Source: a virus (taxonomy: Duplodnaviria > Heunggongvirae > Uroviricota > Caudoviricetes). From it: a DNA stretch of 14,415 nucleotides. Both the position numbers and the translations under genes were made by a program. The first letter of the stretch is position 1, and every line of letters begins with the position of its first letter. The stretch is taken from IMG/VR virus record IMGVR_UViG_2711768057_000001. One strand, 5' to 3'. Below are positions 1,814 to 13,139 of this stretch, piece after piece. The notes under the pieces are model-generated. The model ran no database searches, was not told the DNA's origin, and saw only the letters and a list, made by a program, of their open reading frames with translations.

Positions 1814-3712
1814 TTACTGCATATCGAGGAAGAATCTTGATGCAGGATGATATTTATAATCCCCCCAAGGCATCATTCTTTTTTCTGGATAAGTAACAAA
1901 AATCCAACGCCGAGATCGTGTTATAGCTACGAAAGCATTATTTCTTTCTTCATCTAGCTCGACTTTGCTCTTAGCTCGATAATCTGGAAAAACCCCCTCA
2001 CACATACCGATAAGGAAAACTATATCTTTTTCAAGTCCTTTCATTGTATGAACAGTACTTAACATAATCCCATTATTTAAGGTATCATCATTAAGCTGAC
2101 CCAAAGCAAGTGCATTCCTAAATGAGGATAGATTATCACCGAGGCCTTTACGTTTGAATCGTGTCCACATGGATTGAAGCTGCTCTATATCTTTAATCCC
2201 TGTGGCAATATCATCTTCTTTAGCAGAATCTTTGGTATTTGCTCCTAAATTCACCAGTTCTGATTTAATATCTAAACAGAACTTCAAAATATTAGGTGTG
2301 TCTACAGACATATGATCAATATGTGCTAAAACCAAGCTAATTAAATCTTTATCTAGGTTAGATGATTTTTTTATGTCAGCATAGACTTTGCTAATATCGT
2401 AGGTAACATCTGATTCTGGATTTAATTCTAAACCGATTAATTTATACAATCTCTTCCCATCAACCCAATCCTTTGGATTAACCTTAACCCTTATAGCAAG
2501 ATCGACTATTTTCCCAATAAGAGAAACAGGCGATTCATTTCTATCACTACGCTTTAGGAAATAAGGTATATTTCTTTTTTTAAGCTCACTTTCCATAGCT
2601 TTAAAAACAAATCTATTTCTACCTATAACAACAATTTTAGAGCAATCAATATCGCCCTCAATTTCTGGATGTCTTTTTAAATTCAGTATATGTTGAATGC
2701 TATCACAAACCCATATAGCTTCAGATTCTTCATCTGGTAAAGCATTAAAAGATTTATAGCCATCAAGAGCAGCATTAACACCAACTTGGCTATTTGGTTT
2801 TAATTTATTAGCTAATTCAATCACTGCTTTCGAAGATCTATAGTTCTCGTTTAAACAATAAATTTTAGGAGTAAAATCTTTCACGAATGATTTAATAAAA
2901 TAATCTGATGATGAACCATTAAAACCATAGATCATCTGGTCACTATCACCAACCATCATGACATCTTTTATTTTATCACCGCAGAGAACCTTTATAAATT
3001 CGTACTGAGCTCTGTTTAAGTCTTGAGCTTCATCAACAAATAAAGCAACGTATTTTTTTTGATATATTCTTGCTACTGAATCTTGATTTAATAGGATTTT
3101 ATGTGCATATAAAAGTATATCATCAAAATCCACACCACCACTTTCCAATAAAGCAGACTGATAATCTTGATAAATATTCCAAATACGCGGATTGGAACTG
3201 AATTTTATCTTTACTTCATCTTCAGTTAAAAGCTCTCTTTTAATAATAGAGAATACATTAAGATATTGACTTATAATTTTTTCACGATTGCGCTTTTCTC
3301 TAACGTCCTCAACATCTAAGTATTCATCAATATTAACCCCCTGTTCTCTTAAGGAATGTAGAAAAACCTCCATCCGATCTTGGTCACGTTCAAATATATG
3401 TAATTCTTTTGGTAACCCAATAGTATACCCATAACTTTCGAGTACCCTTTGTGCAACAGAATGAATCGTAGCAATCCAAATCCTATCACGATTTTCTGAG
3501 CCATCATCTAACCTTTCAAGCATTTCATCTGCTGCTTTATTTGTGAATGTTAAAGCAACCACACTTCCTCTAGCAGAGTTATTGAGAATGAACCTAACCC
3601 TCTCAGTAAGCACTCTTGTTTTACCAGACCCTGCAGATGCAAGAACTTGTATAGCCCCTCCCATAGGAGCTTTAACAACTTCAATTTGAGATTGTGATAA
3701 ATTATCAATCAT
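1814..3712 (-). CDS. gajB: UvrD/PcrA/Rep-like superfamily 1 helicase (632 aa), Gabija GajB-like
   Basis: SF1 helicase motifs read from the translation: I AGSGKT, Ia TFTNKAADEM, II VDEAQD, III VGDSDQMIYGF, IV NYRSS, V TVHTMKGLEKDIVF, VI VAITRSRR. Start ATG overlaps the upstream OLD-like stop (ATGA at 3709-3712). Confidence 0.8.
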   Translation of the reverse strand: MIDNLSQSQIEVVKAPMGGAIQVLASAGSGKTRVLTERVRFILNNSARGSVVALTFTNKAADEMLERLDDGSENRDRIWIATIHSVAQRVLESYGYTIGLPKELHIFERDQDRMEVFLHSLREQGVNIDEYLDVEDVREKRNREKIISQYLNVFSIIKRELLTEDEVKIKFSSNPRIWNIYQDYQSALLESGGVDFDDILLYAHKILLNQDSVARIYQKKYVALFVDEAQDLNRAQYEFIKVLCGDKIKDVMMVGDSDQMIYGFNGSSSDYFIKSFVKDFTPKIYCLNENYRSSKAVIELANKLKPNSQVGVNAALDGYKSFNALPDEESEAIWVCDSIQHILNLKRHPEIEGDIDCSKIVVIGRNRFVFKAMESELKKRNIPYFLKRSDRNESPVSLIGKIVDLAIRVKVNPKDWVDGKRLYKLIGLELNPESDVTYDISKVYADIKKSSNLDKDLISLVLAHIDHMSVDTPNILKFCLDIKSELVNLGANTKDSAKEDDIATGIKDIEQLQSMWTRFKRKGLGDNLSSFRNALALGQLNDDTLNNGIMLSTVHTMKGLEKDIVFLIGMCEGVFPDYRAKSKVELDEERNNAFVAITRSRRWIFVTYPEKRMMPWGDYKYHPASRFFLDMQ

Positions 3713-5484
3713 AGCTCAAGCCATCCCCTAACTTTATTAAATGCAATAATAACAGATTCCGGAAGTAATTCCTCAATTCTCTTTCCATTTGCATTCTGTG
3801 CTAGAATCACCCCTAAATACCCTGCATAACTAGCTTTTGAGTCACGCATTTTTTCAATTATAGCACTATCTTGTAAAGCCTCTATTTCTCTTTTCTTGGC
3901 ATCTCGATACCGTTCATTAGGACTAGCTTTGGTTTCACTTAACACTAATGATTCAATTATTTCCTCACGAATATTCAACTCGTTGTATAACTCAGCTTCA
4001 ATATCATTTGTTTCTTTGAGGAACTCTAAGGAGAAACAATCAGGATTCAATACGAGGCCATCTTCACGAACTAAACGTGCTACCTGACGGTTTATCTCAC
4101 CATGAGTATCACCATCATTATCACTAATAATACAGACAGGGATACCTAAATTACTTGCAAGTTTAATGAATGGTGGGTAATTTTTACCACTGACACTTAC
4201 ACAGTTAACTCCAACACTGAACATCGTCCTACCGAAATACAATTCAAACATGGATGGTATTAATTGTTCTTCTGTAACACCCTCACATAAAATTAAGGCT
4301 CGAGAGAAAAGCAACTCACCACGGGTTAACATTATCTCCCTTTTTAATGCATTTTTTTCATCATGTTCAATTCTTTTCTTCAGACAATTTACTGTTACTC
4401 CATCACCTTTCTTTATGAATGATCTTATATCTTCTATCTCAGCCATTGCGCTCAGGTATGGTGAATGAGTACTCAGTATAATTTGTCCCTGAGATGATGA
4501 TAACTGTTTAAACAAGGTTCTTTGTGCATTGGGATGTAGATGCGCTTCTGGCTCTTCAGCTCCAACAATTGGATGTAGCGCCTTATTTTCGAGCTCATGC
4601 CGCTCATGCATAAAGCTTAAAAACGATTGAACTGTAAGCATTGAAGCCCAACTTCTCGTCCCCGTGCCATGATATTCCATTGAAAATGAATGGTTTTCTT
4701 CATCTCCGAAATGTACTGTAAATTGCTTTGATAGATCTCGGATTTTTTTAGGGAAAGGAGTTATTTCTGTGTGGCTTGATCCTAGAAATGATTGGTTTAA
4801 CCCTTGAAGTGAATTTTTTAAGCTTTGAAGCGGCTCACTTCTACTCACTGCGGTTTCATTTATTGAACTTATCATTTCTTCAAGTGCAGTAACATCTTCA
4901 TCTTCATATTTAATATATGATAAGACCTTCCCTATATATGAGCTTTTATCTTTAAGCTCATGATGTATATCCCTCTGAGCCTCAATACAAATATAGGGGA
5001 TTGCATCAACTTTTGTTCTTACCTTTCTTCTCTCGTTGACAACAATGTCTTTCCATCCCTCAAACTCCCCCCATTCATTCAAATAATAACGTTGTGTATT
5101 AAACCCACCTTTTATCTCATCTGGCTGAACTTTTGTACGAATAGCCACAAACTCATGTCCATTTGCATCTACTGCAATATTATCACCGAAAACATCAATC
5201 CATTTTTCGTCAAACTCTTCTGTTTTATTACAATGTTCATCCGTAGGTATTATTTTTAAGTCAACGATAACTTCATTAACTTTTAATCCAGAACTATCTA
5301 TATGAAGATCTTCATCACTAAAGTAACGTTGGTAATCACCTAAAGCTAGTTGCAACGATTTTAGGAAAGATGTTTTCCCCGCATTGTTTGTACCTAACAA
5401 AACGGCAATACGTCCTAGCTCAACCTCAATTTCCTTTATACCTCTAAAACCTGAAATCCTAACAGAATTTATAAGAATTGACAT
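3709..5484 (-). CDS. gajA: OLD-family ATP-dependent nuclease (N-terminal ABC-type ATPase plus C-terminal TOPRIM; 591 aa), Gabija GajA-like
   Basis: Walker A GTNNAGKTS, Walker B-like IVGAEEPEAHLHP, H-loop STHSP, and TOPRIM motifs LILCEGVTEEQ and ISDNDGD. AGGAGG Shine-Dalgarno upstream. Paired in an operon with a UvrD-like helicase, the class 2 OLD/Gabija arrangement. Confidence 0.8.
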   Translation of the reverse strand: MSILINSVRISGFRGIKEIEVELGRIAVLLGTNNAGKTSFLKSLQLALGDYQRYFSDEDLHIDSSGLKVNEVIVDLKIIPTDEHCNKTEEFDEKWIDVFGDNIAVDANGHEFVAIRTKVQPDEIKGGFNTQRYYLNEWGEFEGWKDIVVNERRKVRTKVDAIPYICIEAQRDIHHELKDKSSYIGKVLSYIKYEDEDVTALEEMISSINETAVSRSEPLQSLKNSLQGLNQSFLGSSHTEITPFPKKIRDLSKQFTVHFGDEENHSFSMEYHGTGTRSWASMLTVQSFLSFMHERHELENKALHPIVGAEEPEAHLHPNAQRTLFKQLSSSQGQIILSTHSPYLSAMAEIEDIRSFIKKGDGVTVNCLKKRIEHDEKNALKREIMLTRGELLFSRALILCEGVTEEQLIPSMFELYFGRTMFSVGVNCVSVSGKNYPPFIKLASNLGIPVCIISDNDGDTHGEINRQVARLVREDGLVLNPDCFSLEFLKETNDIEAELYNELNIREEIIESLVLSETKASPNERYRDAKKREIEALQDSAIIEKMRDSKASYAGYLGVILAQNANGKRIEELLPESVIIAFNKVRGWLEL

Positions 5485-5601: not shown

Positions 5602-5620
5602 ATGCTCTCCCCGCCACGCC
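5602..5620 (-). other. cos-like 19-mer resembling the P2/P4 cohesive end
   Basis: Minus strand reads GGCGTGGCGGGGAGAGCAT, 16 of 19 matches to the P2/P4 cos sequence GGCGAGGCGGGGAAAGCAC as I recall it. It sits between psu and the cargo, as in P4-like elements. Confidence 0.5.
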
Positions 5621-5793: not shown

Positions 5794-6360
5794 CTACCGT
5801 GCGGCCAGTTCTGCACGCCGGCGGGTATAAATCATGTTCTGTACAGGGGTGAATTTTTCACGATTATCATCCCGCGAAGGCGCGTCAGGCCTGTATCCGA
5901 TGGCCGTTAAAATGTCGTTATCCTGTGCAGAATAATTAATTTCATTTCCTGCGGCCAGCCAGACGGAAAGAGCTTCTCGCAGGTAATCTACTGAACGGTC
6001 AAGCGCACGGTTTTTTATCATCTCAGGCTGGTTCTTAATCCCCATCAGCTCCGGTGCCAGTGCGGCGGCCAGCTCTGCGCCGTCCTGCTGCATAAAATCA
6101 TGCAGCCGGTTACGAATGCTGATGCGCTGCACCTCTTCATGCGAGAAAATGTAGCGACCGGCGGCCTGATTAACTTCCCATTTTTTTATGTCAATCAGGT
6201 CGCGCTGCGACTGTAATCCGCGGGAACCTGATGCGTTGTCATCCAGCAATAATTCCTGATATTCCTGCACTGCGGCGGCCAGTTCGGCTTTACGGTTCAG
6301 CCACGCGGTTTTGTTCGTCTGACAGGCTTCATAGGCCTGCTGTAAGGTCAGGGTGGTCAC
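5794..6360 (-). CDS. psu: Psu-like polarity suppression / capsid decoration protein (188 aa)
   Basis: Translation MTTLTLQQAYEACQTNKTAWLNRKAELAAA...KWEVNQAAGRYI...FTPVQNMIY resembles P4 Psu as recalled. GTG start with AGGAGA Shine-Dalgarno 8 nt upstream. Confidence 0.8.
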   Translation of the reverse strand: MTTLTLQQAYEACQTNKTAWLNRKAELAAAVQEYQELLLDDNASGSRGLQSQRDLIDIKKWEVNQAAGRYIFSHEEVQRISIRNRLHDFMQQDGAELAAALAPELMGIKNQPEMIKNRALDRSVDYLREALSVWLAAGNEINYSAQDNDILTAIGYRPDAPSRDDNREKFTPVQNMIYTRRRAELAAR

Positions 6361-6376: not shown

Positions 6377-6622
6377 TTAGTGGCGGAACGGCGAGCTGTA
6401 GCAATCTTTTACCCGGCGAGGTGCTGCGGGTATTGTCGGCACCGGCGCGGGTTTCTCATCGATGACCGGAGAACGTATCACTTCAAAGATGGACTCATGC
6501 GTTTTGAATGTCGCCGAGCAGTGCACATTCTGGCACTGCAGGTAACTCTCTTTGACGCTCTCGGACATATAGCGGCTGGTGCGGACGTGAGCCGCCGTGC
6601 GGCAGAAAGGGCAGCGCATCAT
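6377..6622 (-). CDS. Ogr/Delta-family zinc-finger late transcription activator (81 aa, single domain)
   Basis: CPFC...C(x)nC zinc-finger pattern (MMRCPFCRTAAHVRTSRYMSESVKESYLQCQNVHCSATF), similar to P2 Ogr. Start overlaps the sid stop (ATGA at 6619-6622). Confidence 0.8.
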   Translation of the reverse strand: MMRCPFCRTAAHVRTSRYMSESVKESYLQCQNVHCSATFKTHESIFEVIRSPVIDEKPAPVPTIPAAPRRVKDCYSSPFRH

Positions 6623-7356
6623 GACAGTAGCCCCCGTGCTTTCAGGTCGGCTTCACGTTCCCGCATTTTTTCCTGCCAGACTTTCCGCTGAACGGGCGTG
6701 GCCGCAACGTCATGCTCCATATGCGGCAGCGTGGAGGCCGACAGCCCTGTTTTAAACAGCACCGGTTCATCGGTCAGACGGATATTGCAGCCCTTTACGG
6801 CCTGTTCAAGCCACGCTTTCACCTGCTGCATTACAACTTTTTCCGGTTCGGTATATCCCTGATGGCCTGTGGTATTGGCTAGCGGGTTATTCAGAACCAG
6901 TATGTTGAGTTTCATTGCCCTGACCAGCGCGCTACAGGTGTCACGCAGGGCAACATCAAGCTCATGCTCTGCATACTGGCTGAGGACGCTGTGATGTGCC
7001 TGACGATACGCTCTGGCCGTCCGGTCACACGCTCCTTTAAGGCTGTCCAGCTCAAAAGACAGAACCTCAGCCATATTGTCACATTCCTGCGCCAGTTCCC
7101 GCCGTGCCACGCGCGTCAGATGGCGTTGTTTCAGCTCGCCGGTAACGACAGCACCACCGGCACGAAAGGCGGCGCGCCATGCGCCGGAATCATTGTCATT
7201 TTCCTGCTCCAGTTCCTTTTTTTGTGCTTTCACCTGGCTGACGGCCGCCGTGGTTTCATCCATACGGCTGGCATTGGCGAGATGCGCCGAGCGGGCAGTC
7301 TCAAGGCGTTCCATTGCAGGTTTAAGGTAGTCGGGAATAACAGCGGTCTGAGTCAT
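6619..7356 (-). CDS. sid: Sid-like capsid size determination (external scaffold) protein, about 245 aa
   Basis: Translation MTQTAVIPDYLKPAMERLETARSAHLANASRMDETTAAV...ARGLLS resembles P4 Sid as recalled. I place the start at the internal ATG at 7356 (AGGAGA Shine-Dalgarno 6 nt upstream), not the ORF-track start at 7422. Confidence 0.8.
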   Translation of the reverse strand: MTQTAVIPDYLKPAMERLETARSAHLANASRMDETTAAVSQVKAQKKELEQENDNDSGAWRAAFRAGGAVVTGELKQRHLTRVARRELAQECDNMAEVLSFELDSLKGACDRTARAYRQAHHSVLSQYAEHELDVALRDTCSALVRAMKLNILVLNNPLANTTGHQGYTEPEKVVMQQVKAWLEQAVKGCNIRLTDEPVLFKTGLSASTLPHMEHDVAATPVQRKVWQEKMREREADLKARGLLS

Positions 7357-7428
7357 GTCAGGTCTCCTCTTCATTTCAATCTGAGGAGATTCTGCCGCGC
7401 CAGACACAACAACACGATTCATTGCCGT

Positions 7429-7446
7429 TGTGGCAAAAATGGCACA
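7429..7446. promoter_or_regulatory. TGT-N12-ACA dyad, candidate Ogr/Delta activator site of the late sid promoter
   Basis: TGTGGCAAAAATGGCACA lies about 75-90 bp upstream of the sid ATG on the minus strand; TGT-N12-ACA is the known recognition pattern of P2/P4 late promoters. Confidence 0.55.
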
Positions 7447-7533: not shown

Positions 7534-7627
7534 TGTTCACCTTGAGAAAAAAGATAAGTAATACAGTTAATTAAAGGGTGAACAGTTGAAGGTCTGACTG
7601 TTCACCGTCTGTTCACCACTGTTCACC
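7534..7627. repeat. Iteron cluster: four direct copies of TGTTCACC (three at about 10 bp phasing) plus one inverted copy
   Basis: Direct copies at 7534-7541, 7599-7606, 7610-7617 and 7620-7627; inverted GGTGAACA at 7577-7584. The octamer is identical to the P4 type I iteron bound by alpha protein, as I recall it. Confidence 0.6.
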
Positions 7628-7709
7628 CTTCTGTTTTTCTCTGCCGATACCTTTTAGACTTTATTTCGATTAAAAATCGAAATATATAACTAAAGGAAAT
7701 AGAAATTGC

Positions 7710-7892: not shown

Positions 7893-8159
7893 ATGCACAC
7901 TGCTTTTTCTTCCCCGTCTTCTGCCCCTGCCGCGCCACTGATACCGGTCTCTGATGCCGTTCAGGAGCGATTTATCCGCCTGCCTGAAGTGATGCATCTG
8001 TGCGGCCTGTCACGGTCAACCATTTACGACCTCATCAGCCGGGAAGCCTTCCCGAAACAAATCTCCCTCGGTGGAAAAAACGTGGCGTGGGCGCACTCAG
8101 AAATCATGGCATGGATGACTGACCGCATTGCCGAACGTAACCGGGGTTATGACGCATGA
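7893..8159 (+). CDS. vis: AlpA/Vis-family helix-turn-helix regulator (88 aa)
   Basis: [48 protein letters not shown] matches the AlpA-family pattern (RLPEV...G.S..TIY......FP......V.W...EI..W). Position divergent from sid corresponds to P4 vis (orf88). Confidence 0.7.
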
Positions 8160-8707: not shown

Positions 8708-8931
8708 GACACTCCACCATTACCGCCCGAGACCTCGAATGTCTGGAGCATATGCGCAACGTCGGCCAGCTCGTCGGCGACCTGATGCAGGTGCAGGACT
8801 GCGCGACCGTTAGGCGTGACCCTGCGCAGCAGTTACAGCTCACCTCCGTGATTTACCTCATGACCGCCCAGCTAGACAGCGTGGTCGAGCGCTGCAATCA
8901 GCACTGGCTGACCGGGGAGGGTAATGTATGA
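8704..8931 (+). CDS. Small early-operon protein (75 aa), hypothetical
   Basis: GGAGGT Shine-Dalgarno 6 nt upstream; ATGA overlaps at both ends indicate translational coupling. Confidence 0.5.
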
Positions 8932-9248
8932 AAAAGCCATTACCACCCGTATTACGTGCCGCGCTGTATCGTCGCGCCGTGGCCTGTGCATGGCTAACCC
9001 TGTGCGAACGTCAGCACCGCTATCCGCAACTCACCCTCGATGCACTCGAAAGCGCCATTGCCGCCGAGCTGGAGGGCTTCTACCTGCGCCAGCATGGCGA
9101 GGAAAAAGGCCGTCAGATTGCCTGTGCACTGCTGGAAGATTTAATGGAAGCTGGGCCACTCAAGGCCGCGCCCTCACTGTCCTTTCTCGGGCTCGCGGTG
9201 ATGGATGAACTTTGCGCCCGTCATATCACCGCACCGGTACTGCACTGA
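8928..9248 (+). CDS. Small early-operon protein (106 aa), hypothetical
   Basis: GGGGAGGG Shine-Dalgarno upstream; start overlaps the previous stop (ATGA). Last gene before attR. Confidence 0.55.
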
Positions 9249-9322
9249 GGGAGAAAATAACAATGAAAATGAATGTACGGAAAAATCCTTTATATTTAAT
9301 ACATTGAGAAATTTATTCAGAC

Positions 9323-9348
9323 TCCGCCAGCTCCACCAATCATGATTG
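9323..9348. repeat. attR: imperfect direct repeat of the ssrA 3' end, right junction of the island
   Basis: CTCCGCCAGCTCCACCAATCATGATT versus attL CTCCCGCCAGCTCCACCAAATCATGATC; the two copies differ by two single-base indels and one terminal substitution. Confidence 0.7.
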
Positions 9349-9468
9349 GACGGTATAAGGACAACACCAATAAAAACAGGAAGTTAGCAGTCTCAGCAGG
9401 ACACCGACCAGACGGTGAAGAGACATAAAAGGATACGCAAAGGAGCCGCGGCTCCTGGTGACATGAAA

Positions 9469-9489
9469 GCCCACAGATGTGGGCTTTTT
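9469..9489 (+). terminator. Rho-independent terminator-like hairpin downstream of attR
   Basis: GCCCAC, loop AGAT, GTGGGC, then TTTTT; resembles the hairpin after ssrA at attL. Confidence 0.5.
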
Positions 9490-9498
9490 CGTTGATGG

Positions 9499-12400
9499 TC
9501 AGAACGACCAGTTCACACCAGCTACCCCGTTCCACGGGGATTCCACACCGGCACCATGGCTATACCCCACCCCAAGATGCCCGCTTAACGTACTGCTGAA
9601 TGAGGCTTTAATACCTGCCTGGTATATTCCACGTCTGCCCGACAAATCATTGACGAAATTACCGTCACTATTCACTTTCACCCGGTTATCATCGACAAAT
9701 TCTTTGCGCACAGCCGCCTTCAGCCACGGCTCAACTTCCATACCGTTCCCCAGACGCATGTTGTAACTCAGCGTTGCACCCAGTTCACGATATAAACTGC
9801 GGGTATCGACTGATTTCGATTCCATGCCATTGGATAAATGATATTCAGGGTTATCAGCGGTGAACCCCCGTTAACGATGCATACGGCGTCAGGTTCCAGT
9901 TACCATCGGTAAATCGCATCCCGGTTTCAATGTGACCGCCCAGCCCGTTGCTGCGATAACTGCCGTTGGCGGCTCCACCGCTGCCAACCGTGGAGTCGCG
10001 AGCTTCGGTACCTGCTAATACCAATAAATTACCGCCATTTTCCAGCAACATATTGGTCGCTAAATTGCCGGAAATGGAAAAAGTGCCGTACTGGTGAGTA
10101 CCGCTGATTTCAATACCGTTAGCCGTGCTCGTCTGGAGAGCGGCACCGCTGTTCTGGACGATATCTGTCGCTTTGCCATTATCGTTAACTGTCAGCGTAC
10201 CGCCTTCATTGATCTTTGTTTTTATTGCCTCTCCGTTAGCTGAAACTGTTTGTATTCCGCCGTCGTTAATCGTTGTCTCATTCGCCACCCCCTCGACGAT
10301 TTGTTCGCCGCCGGTGAGCGTCGTGCCTGTCGCAGTGGCTTTTGTTTTGACGATCTCCCGTCCGCCCGTATTGACCTGTGTTTTGTCAGAAGAGGTGTCT
10401 GACTCCATGGTTAACACGCCGCCATTTGCCAGCAGGATATTGTTCGCCGCACCCTGCTCGATGCTGAACGCGACGCCATCCGCGCGTGTTCCTGTGACCC
10501 GCGTCGCCCTGGTGGTTGCAACCAAAGCGTCCTGGCTACTCTGCTGTATCCCCGTTGCGCTGCCTTTCTCCCGCACATCGAGTGTGCCGCCGTCATTAAG
10601 CACCGAGTTTTCAGCCAGACCGCCCTCATTAACTACCTGTGAACACCCATTAATAATGGAACCTTCCGCTGTCCCGTTTGCCATAATTTGTTGTAGGCCA
10701 GAGACGATATCGGTATTGATTGCCTTACCATAATTCTGAACGGTTTGCGTGCCACCATTGATGTGTGTTTTCTCTGTTGACCCACCATCAACAATTTGTT
10801 CACCACTTTCGATATTTGCCTCAGTGGCTAATCCATATACCGTTTGCTTGCCACCTTTGATATTTGCTTTATCAGAAGTGGCACTGGCATATATTGTTTG
10901 GGTGCCAGCACTATTGAGTACAGTGCCAACATCTTTTCCATAAACATCCATTTTGCCGTTGGCATTAATAATCGTATCAACTGCCCGGGAACCAGTGACG
11001 ACTGTTAATGAGCCAGCGTTTTCCAGCACTACATTTTTAGCTTCTGAATTCCTGATGTAGAAAGCATCACCATAACTGTTGGTTCCTTCGATAAGGGTTC
11101 CGGAAGTTGTGGAAGCAATTAATGCGCCGCCGGATTGTTGCTCAACATGCTTAGCCTCACCACCGTCCTGAACCTCCAGAACGCCACCATTATTAAGTCT
11201 GGTGGTATCTGTTTTAGCCTCCTTCTGGACAATCAGCTTACCGCCAGCATCAACGGTAGTATTTTTCGCCGAGGTTTTAGCCACTACCGTCAGTTCGCCG
11301 GTATTTTCCAGCACAACATAATTAGCCTCCCCTCCGGTAATAGTGAAGTGAGAGAGCTTGTTGTATCCTTCAATATCAGTCCCTGCGCCCGTGTTGGCAA
11401 CTAAAGCACTGCCCGTCTCCTGGTTAACCCCATGTGCAATACCACCGGTATAGACAATCAGCGAGCCTCCGGCGCTAATATTGCTGCCAGTTGCCGTACC
11501 ATCTTTCTCAACAACCTGCCGGCTCCCGGAGGATATAATTGTCGTGTCAGCTTTCCCGCCGCTCTTGATATTTTGCGTTCCGCCGTTGATATTGGTACCC
11601 GTGGCAATACCATGATTATTAATATTCTGTGTACCACCATTGATTATGGTATTGGTCGCGTTTCCGGTAACATCCATTACCCCGCCGTTATCTATTCGGG
11701 TCGCATCAGCTTTAGCATTCGTTAAAACTGACATTGTTCCTTTATCTTTAATAATCGTCTTGTTTGCCGAACCATATGCGTTTATGTCTAAATGACCACC
11801 GTTTTCCAGCAACACATTGTCTGCCACGTGATTGTGGATGGAGAATGCACCTTCACTATTCGTACCGCTCACCGTCGTACCGTTAGTGTTTGTTTTTAAA
11901 ATTGCACCATCGTGCTGGGTAACATTTGTTGCCGTACCACCACTAACATCAAGCACGCCACCGGAATAAACTTCAATAACATCCGAGGAGCTGGTGTAAT
12001 CAACAATTTGCGTACCACCAGAATAGATCTGAGTATTTTTGCCGTTGACTTATTATTCAGAGACTGAGTTCCACCTTCAATCATCGTGTCCAGCGCATGG
12101 CTTTCATATACTCTTTGCTCACCGCCATTTTTAATGGTGGTTGTTCCTACTGTGCTCTGTTCAACATACTGTCGTCCACCATTTATGATTGTGTTCGTTG
12201 CAATACTTCCTTGCGTGATGTCCTGATAACCGGACTTATTTATCGTTGTACCATCAACATGCCCCTGAGTTGTTACTTTCTGCCCTCCACCATCAATGAT
12301 GGTTCCATTCGCAGTCCCCCCACTTATGTGTGAATTACCACCCTTAATTGTCGTTCCATTGCTGATACCACCTGTATAAACGTCCTGATTGCCACTGTCG

Positions 12401-12768
12401 ATTATCGTACCGGTGGAAATGCCCCCGTCATGAATTGTCTGTCTTCCTCCGTTAATGGTTGTATTATTAGCCTGCCCCACAAAATTGTTATGACTTCCTA
12501 CATCTTGATATCCACCCGATTCAATAAGACTTCCATTAGATACCCCGCCATGAACATTCTGCTGGCCATGGTTGATAATATGAGTGTTATTTGTTGTACC
12601 TCGTTCATCTACTCTTTGGCTGCCATCTACAGTCTCATCGTTTACCACACCAATAACATCAGGAGTGAAGGCCGTCATCCCAGGCGGGGCATATATCAAG
12701 GCAGATATCAATAAGGAAAGTACTGAGCGGCGACAATAATGGGGACTGGTCCTGTTCATAAATTTCAT
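9499..12768 (-). pseudogene. ypjA: ypjA-like autotransporter adhesin split over three reading frames, with a short C-terminal beta-domain
   Basis: N-terminal fragment has a signal peptide (MKFMNRTSPHYCRRSVLSLLISALIYAPPGMTA); a 700 aa repetitive passenger region follows; the C-terminal fragment ends ...GVESPWNGVAGVNWSF, the autotransporter terminal signature. The three ORFs (11896..12888, 9854..11956, 9499..9825) are contiguous but in different frames. Confidence 0.7.
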
Positions 12769-13139
12769 CCTCTGAAAAGTGAATACTGAGTAGCGTTTAA
12801 GCGACCTTAGCTCTGCTGCAACATCAGCCCACAGGCACCAGACCAGGGGATTCATCCTGAAGAGACAGCGCAAGTGTATTGTGTTCACCGCTCATCAAAG
12901 ACATCATGATGAAATGATGATATTCCACATAAGAAAGAAGCATTTTTTAAACGCAGTGCGCTGAAGTATGGTTGGATAAAAAAGTCAATCTATTCAGGGA
13001 ATACGGGGGTATTCTTTTCTTTCGACAATCAGGCCGTCGGCAAAATAAAATGATTTACATAATCGTTTCTGATGAATATCTTCTGCTCACATAAAAATAA
13101 CACAATAACTTTGAGATCGCAGATTCTTTTACTTTTACA

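Follow-up and report, generated by a model that had tools for sequence, protein, structure and literature searches.

A single-finger Delta late activator in the remnant of a P4-like satellite at ssrA of Escherichia coli

The DNA analysed here, a stretch of 14,415 nucleotides filed as IMG/VR virus record IMGVR_UViG_2711768057_000001 and called the window below, is 100% identical at the delta locus to the chromosome of Escherichia coli KSC9 (NZ_CP018323.1). It begins at ssrA, beside which a P4-like element is integrated. The features used in this study are as follows, with the strand given in brackets where it matters.

40-402: tmRNA (ssrA)
586-1776: integrase, the first gene after ssrA
1814-3712 (-): GajB (PADLOC, E 2.8e-272)
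3709-5484 (-): GajA (PADLOC, E 1.4e-245)
5602-5620 (-): cos-like site GGCGTGGCGGGGAGAGCAT, a 16/19 match to the P4 cohesive end
5794-6360 (-): psu, for polarity suppression and decoration of the capsid (PF07455, E 9.8e-87 over the full profile)
6377-6622 (-): delta, an 81-aa single-finger late activator of the Ogr/Delta type, stop codon included (translation, PF04606, RefSeq WP_072135301.1)
6380-6412 (-): conserved C-terminal motif of Delta, residues 71-81, VKDCYSSPFRH (family consensus VKGCYSSPFRH)
6413-6472 (-): Pro/Ala-rich linker of Delta, residues 51-70, variable in sequence and almost fixed in length
6476-6616 (-): C4 zinc-finger domain of Delta, residues 3-49, with C4, C7, C30 and C35 in the pattern CX2CX22CX4C (Pfam match)
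6619-7356 (-): sid, capsid size determination (longest ORF to 7422, start of the RefSeq model at 7356)
7391-7408 (-): second Psid site TGTGTCTGGCGCGGCAGA, with one mismatch, 38 bp downstream of the first and aligned with P4 TGTCCGGTGTACGTCACA
7429-7446 (-): Psid activator dyad TGTGCCATTTTTGCCACA (TGT-N12-ACA), a perfect match to the consensus, aligned with P4 Psid TGTGTCAGGGCTGGCACA
7893-8159 (+): alpA/vis-like regulator of the leftward operon, which is divergent (PF05930, E 1.5e-20)
8928-9248 (+): DUF5375 gene, homologue of P4 orf106 and last satellite gene (PF17345, E 4.4e-65)

The two Gaj genes form a Gabija defence pair in a hotspot between the integrase and cos/psu (1814-5484, minus strand). 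Related ssrA elements carry other cargo in this hotspot; for instance, strain AF14 has a gene with a STAS-like domain and two hypothetical genes. Beyond the Gabija pair, the order is cos-like site, psu, delta, sid and the P4-type ori/promoter region, followed by alpA. An Icd-like/cI-region ORF and a 75-aa ORF lie between alpA and the DUF5375 gene.

Conceptual translation of 6377-6622 on the minus strand yields 81 amino acids, MMRCPFCRTAAHVRTSRYMSESVKESYLQCQNVHCSATFKTHESIFEVIRSPVIDEKPAPVPTIPAAPRRVKDCYSSPFRH, followed by a stop. RefSeq holds the identical gene model (WP_072135301.1), named 'ogr/Delta-like zinc finger family protein'. The start ATG of delta shares bases with the stop codon of sid (ATGA overlap), and a gap of 16 bp separates the delta stop codon from the GTG start of psu. 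The Sid ORF matches PHROG 6165, which contains P4 Sid (E 1.1e-107, residues 25-265), and its counterpart in the related strain AF14 is annotated 'Sid'. The Psu protein of the window has 61% identity to P4 Psu. Both the gene order sid-delta-psu and the ATGA overlap are the same as in P4, and the three ORFs as well as the Psid dyad are all intact in the window.

Our Pfam search placed the window Delta in the Ogr_Delta family (PF04606) by one stretch covering residues 3-49 and profile positions 1-47 of 47, with 74.6 bits (E 5.7e-21) against a curated gathering cut-off of 26.3 bits. Pfam found nothing notable in the protein besides this single domain. The cysteine pattern CX2CX22CX4C is the spacing given for the zinc finger of Ogr (PMC3931495), and alignments show that the Cys columns of the finger are invariant or nearly so across relatives. 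Homology to P2 Ogr and to the satellite Deltas predicts that zinc is bound via Cys4, 7, 30 and 35. Its best NCBIfam match is the Ogr equivalog NF007241, with a score of 79.8 bits that falls under the equivalog cut-off of 116. A sequence search of solved structures returned no PDB match at E <= 1, and an AlphaFold2 model built from a 46-sequence alignment (mean pLDDT 57.6, pTM 0.31) was too poor for a structural reading.

The initial annotation had described an 81-aa protein with one CxxC...CxxxxC finger that is not a P4-type tandem, and our results agree with this description. P4 Delta is annotated at 166 aa, and its translation contains two CxxC...CxxxxC units in one chain. In contrast to this tandem arrangement of two fingers in ~166 aa, the window Delta shows a single Pfam stretch. 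We also looked for a second finger fused in frame, which the initial annotation had put forward as the observation that would speak against it. A tblastn search of the whole window with each half of P4 Delta revealed no second finger in any frame, and 6380-6622 was the sole region of homology, which rules out a hidden second finger or a frameshift. Moreover, the delta stop lies only 16 bp from psu, which leaves too little space for another repeat to be fused. With its one finger and its place between sid and psu in a P4-like element, the protein is a single-domain satellite Delta. The gene is an intact one-finger Delta activator of a P4-like satellite, in a common and already annotated form.

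The window Delta occupies the same genomic slot as P4 Delta: in both, delta and sid overlap by ATGA, and the operon and its promoter are laid out alike. However, its identity to the two halves of P4 Delta is only 34% and 36%, and P4 Delta has no GCYSSPFRH tail. The similarity to P2 Ogr is higher, with the same C4 finger and 52% identity over residues 1-63, and the target TGT-N12-ACA is presumably shared. Yet, P2 Ogr (72 aa), like B of phage 186 and Pag of PSP3, is encoded by the helper, and it ends in ...SGQQIMWM without the C-terminal motif of the satellite proteins. The initial annotation likened the late module to the phiR73/Ogr state rather than to P4. This was right as regards architecture, and the identity to Ogr exceeds that to either half of P4 Delta, although the single-domain state that it singled out is the ordinary one for the family.

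E. coli ATCC 8739 carries at tRNA-Sec a satellite that is complete, with alpha besides integrase, psu, sid, alpA and a delta of 81 aa. Its Delta (WP_000984201.1) is 75% identical to the window Delta, and both are proteins of 81 aa with a single PF04606 finger. The 81-aa Deltas of complete P4-like satellites, of which it is one, lie in the sid-delta-psu slot and end in ...KGCYSSPF(R/N)H after a linker rich in Pro and Ala, much as the window Delta does. The window allele nevertheless forms a separate lineage, with an ssrA integrase, Asp73 instead of Gly, and an element without alpha. The likeness of the window protein to phiR73 Delta is to be read through a proxy, namely the Delta of the selC-integrated ATCC 8739 satellite. 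The location of this satellite, tRNA-Sec (selC), is also the attachment site used by phiR73, the Delta of which is reportedly single-domain.

Alignment of 46 relatives, together with 19 orthologues, divides the protein into three parts, a conserved finger (residues 1-50), a variable linker (51-70) and a conserved C-terminus. The C-terminal Pro/Ala-rich extension of the initial annotation is indeed present, with PAPVPTIPAAPRR at residues 58-70, but the region is more than an extension, since a conserved motif follows the variable linker. Among the 19 orthologous genes, each exactly 246 nt long, many linker positions have 3-5 different residues per column, and in the linker as a whole nearly all positions vary. 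The motif at the C-terminus reads (K/Q)GCYSSP(F/Y)RH among the relatives and (Q/L)DC(S/A)RSSLRH in a sister group. Its codons vary synonymously across the 19 orthologues (C as TGC/TGT, S as TCG/TCA/TCC, P as CCG/CCA/CCC, H as CAC/CAT). The amino acids of the motif are thus kept while the third codon positions vary, and therefore the constraint acts on the protein; the C-terminal motif is under purifying selection at the protein level. Residue 73 of the window Delta is Asp, where 17 of the 19 orthologues have Gly (one substitution, G73D, from the consensus). Asp is usual at this position in the QDC(S/A)RSSLRH subgroup.

No counterpart of the C-terminal tail was found among 50,697 phage records, P2 and P4 included. 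To our knowledge, no function has been described for the C-terminal peptide of satellite Deltas. The use of linker plus C-terminal motif as a feature of the class, which the window Delta displays, originates from this analysis and not from the literature. It is conceivable, although we are inclined to doubt it, that the peptide, held at a fixed distance from the finger, is a satellite-specific module (e.g., for dimerisation, for contact with RNA polymerase, or as a signal for control or turnover) that helper Ogr lacks and that P4 lost when two diverged Deltas fused.

The single-finger form proved to be widespread. The exact window protein was found on 129 contigs in a public collection, and at 90% it falls in a cluster of 418 members, drawn from E. 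coli, Salmonella, Enterobacter, Citrobacter and Cronobacter. A psu-anchored scan using one genome per species yielded 30 psu loci, and in 22 of these an intact single-finger Delta of 79-81 aa with the same tail lies directly upstream of psu. The other loci comprise a 67-aa version (1/30), degraded remnants of the same type (4/30), a locus cut by a contig end (1/30), a P4-type 166-aa tandem (1/30) and a locus with no Delta (1/30). Among 1.84 billion representative proteins, 194 matched the window Delta at E <= 0.001, and only one (194 aa) of the best 150 of these 194 relatives has two matched finger stretches. Across species, having a single domain is thus the norm in this family and not a departure from it.

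In E. coli, this picture is reversed, and the tandem is the commoner form. DNA of the second P4 Delta repeat is present in at least 924 of the 5426 complete E. coli genomes, compared to at least about 200-230 for the 81-aa Delta types. The window allele (>= 90% identity) occurs in at least 45 and the ATCC 8739 allele (>= 95% identity) in at least 154 of the same genomes. All these genome counts come from DNA searches and are lower bounds.

Free-standing relatives exist for both halves of P4 Delta, and therefore a fusion of two diverged Deltas fits better than a recent internal duplication. The tandem of P4 may have arisen through the joining of two single-domain Deltas that had already diverged. 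One such relative is a free-standing protein of 90 aa (P0238; L036, 971-1243) that adjoins psu, an AIPR-domain gene and an integrase. In this protein, the finger resembles the second P4 Delta repeat (48% identity, E 4e-20) more than the first (29%), and the tail is that of the satellite proteins, ...GCYSSPFRN, with a terminal Asn for His. Another is an 81-aa protein of E. coli (P0044), in which the first 39 residues are identical to the N-terminal finger of P4 Delta (L001, 10314-10430) and the rest is the tail of an ATCC 8739-type Delta. This protein has the appearance of a recent recombinant whose junction lies at the conserved CSATF.

The element that harbours the window delta is incomplete. 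In P4, the alpha primase-helicase gene comes next after orf106. The window contains no alpha primase gene; its DUF5375 gene is followed by fragments of the ypjA autotransporter gene (9249-9860; KSC9 annotation). In AF14, alpha is still present in the same ssrA element but truncated by IS1 (L034, 11963-15073). The loss in the window and the IS1-cut copy in AF14 therefore point to a stepwise decay of the ssrA lineage. Without alpha, the window element is a remnant and not an autonomous satellite. Its late module is intact inside this decayed P4-like satellite, and because alpha is absent, the selection on this module may be relaxed.

Repeats of the P4-type ori (GGTGAACAG units; 7540-7640, minus strand) are near-perfect compared to P4, even though alpha, which P4 replication requires, is no longer encoded. 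Further along, the long autotransporter ORFs of 700 and 330 aa (9854-12888, minus strand) are annotated in KSC9 as a ypjA/ehaD pseudogene that is partial and frameshifted. A distant DNA search with the window delta matched two places in the KSC9 chromosome. Hence, a second Ogr/Delta-like gene lies elsewhere in this genome, in a helper prophage or in a second satellite.

The region upstream of the window sid aligns well with P4, and the two Psid sites of the window lie 38 bp apart, just like those of P4 at 9493 and 9531. The stretch that aligns with the PLL dyad of P4 is an imperfect TGT-N12-ACA, with two mismatches by eye. In the whole window, TGT-N12-ACA was found 5 times versus 4.1 times expected. 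This count is at the level of chance, and therefore the Psid site draws its weight only from the alignment with P4, which identifies 7429-7446 as a conserved candidate operator of Delta. By analogy with known activators, the window Delta would act as a dimer on a TGT-N12-ACA dyad ~55 bp upstream of late promoters, and once bound to this dyad it would activate sigma-70 RNA polymerase. It would thereby switch on the late operons of a P2-like helper and, via the dyad at 7429-7446, its own sid-delta-psu operon.

We consider it very likely that this ORF represents delta of a P4-like satellite, in the common single-domain form in which a Pro/Ala-rich spacer joins a C4 finger to a short conserved peptide at the C-terminus. 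The gene model, the domain count, the family, the synteny, the operator aligned with P4 and the purifying selection on the C-terminal motif support this directly. Zinc binding, dimerisation, DNA binding and activation are predicted from membership of the family, and any role of the tail is hypothetical. Against this explanation, we count Asp73, the mismatch in the second Psid site, the two mismatches in the stretch aligned with PLL, and the loss of alpha.

Some of the same observations bear on the present role of the gene. Possibly, though we think it rather unlikely, the intact ORF no longer serves a satellite life cycle. In an element unable to replicate, the sid-delta-psu module could be drifting neutrally, or it could be kept for interference with infecting P2-like phages, where Sid expression driven by Ogr or Delta would lead to capsids too small for the P2 genome. 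This suggestion concerns the present role of the gene and not its identity, and is compatible with a single-domain satellite Delta. It would agree with the absence of alpha here and its interruption by IS1 in the related strain, with three late ORFs and a Psid dyad that are still intact, and with a Gabija defence pair in the neighbouring hotspot. However, relaxed selection would account just as well for G73D and for the degenerate secondary operators.

An alternative explanation for the single finger might be a P4-type tandem Delta that was truncated by deletion of its second finger and is now a decaying pseudogene. The element has indeed decayed and lost alpha, and the tandem is the commoner form in E. 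coli (at least 924 of the 5426 genomes). Yet, the length of 81 aa and the C-terminal motif are kept across many genera with synonymous variation, and the same 81-aa form occurs in complete satellites. Furthermore, the finger is only 34-36% identical to the P4 halves versus 52% to Ogr, and the window holds no remnant of a second finger anywhere. The conserved length and motif, the identities and the complete satellites contradict a truncated P4 Delta, and we reject it as highly improbable. Still less credible is an ogr gene in a remnant of a P2-like helper prophage. The nearest phage matches are indeed Ogr-type activators of P2-like phages (50-58% identity) and the Ogr equivalog model is the best NCBIfam match, but this match (79.8) is below the cut-off of 116, the C-terminal tail is in no phage record, and the synteny contradicts it, with delta between sid and psu and near a P4-type ori/alpA region and a cos-like site.

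The single-domain satellite Delta has also been taken, in the initial annotation, to bear on which helper phages the satellite can exploit. Our results lend no support to this idea, because the Psid dyads of the ATCC 8739 satellite, the Delta of which has 81 aa, do not differ in sequence from those of P4. Furthermore, the PF promoter of P2 is reported to be activated by each of the three proteins phiR73 delta, PSP3 Pag and P2 Ogr (10.1101/2022.11.09.515794). We think that dependence on a helper is governed more by other functions; the window element lacks alpha anyway. Hence, the single-domain state says nothing specific on helper range.

The architecture of the window Delta was already known; this form is widespread and correctly annotated in a family of activators that has been studied well, and the gene itself matters little. 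The C-terminal peptide common to the single-domain satellite Deltas is a modest by-product of this analysis. P4, the textbook satellite, carries an atypical Delta, which is the exception across species though frequent in E. coli. Therefore, the architecture of P4 Delta is unsuitable as a reference for judging other satellites.
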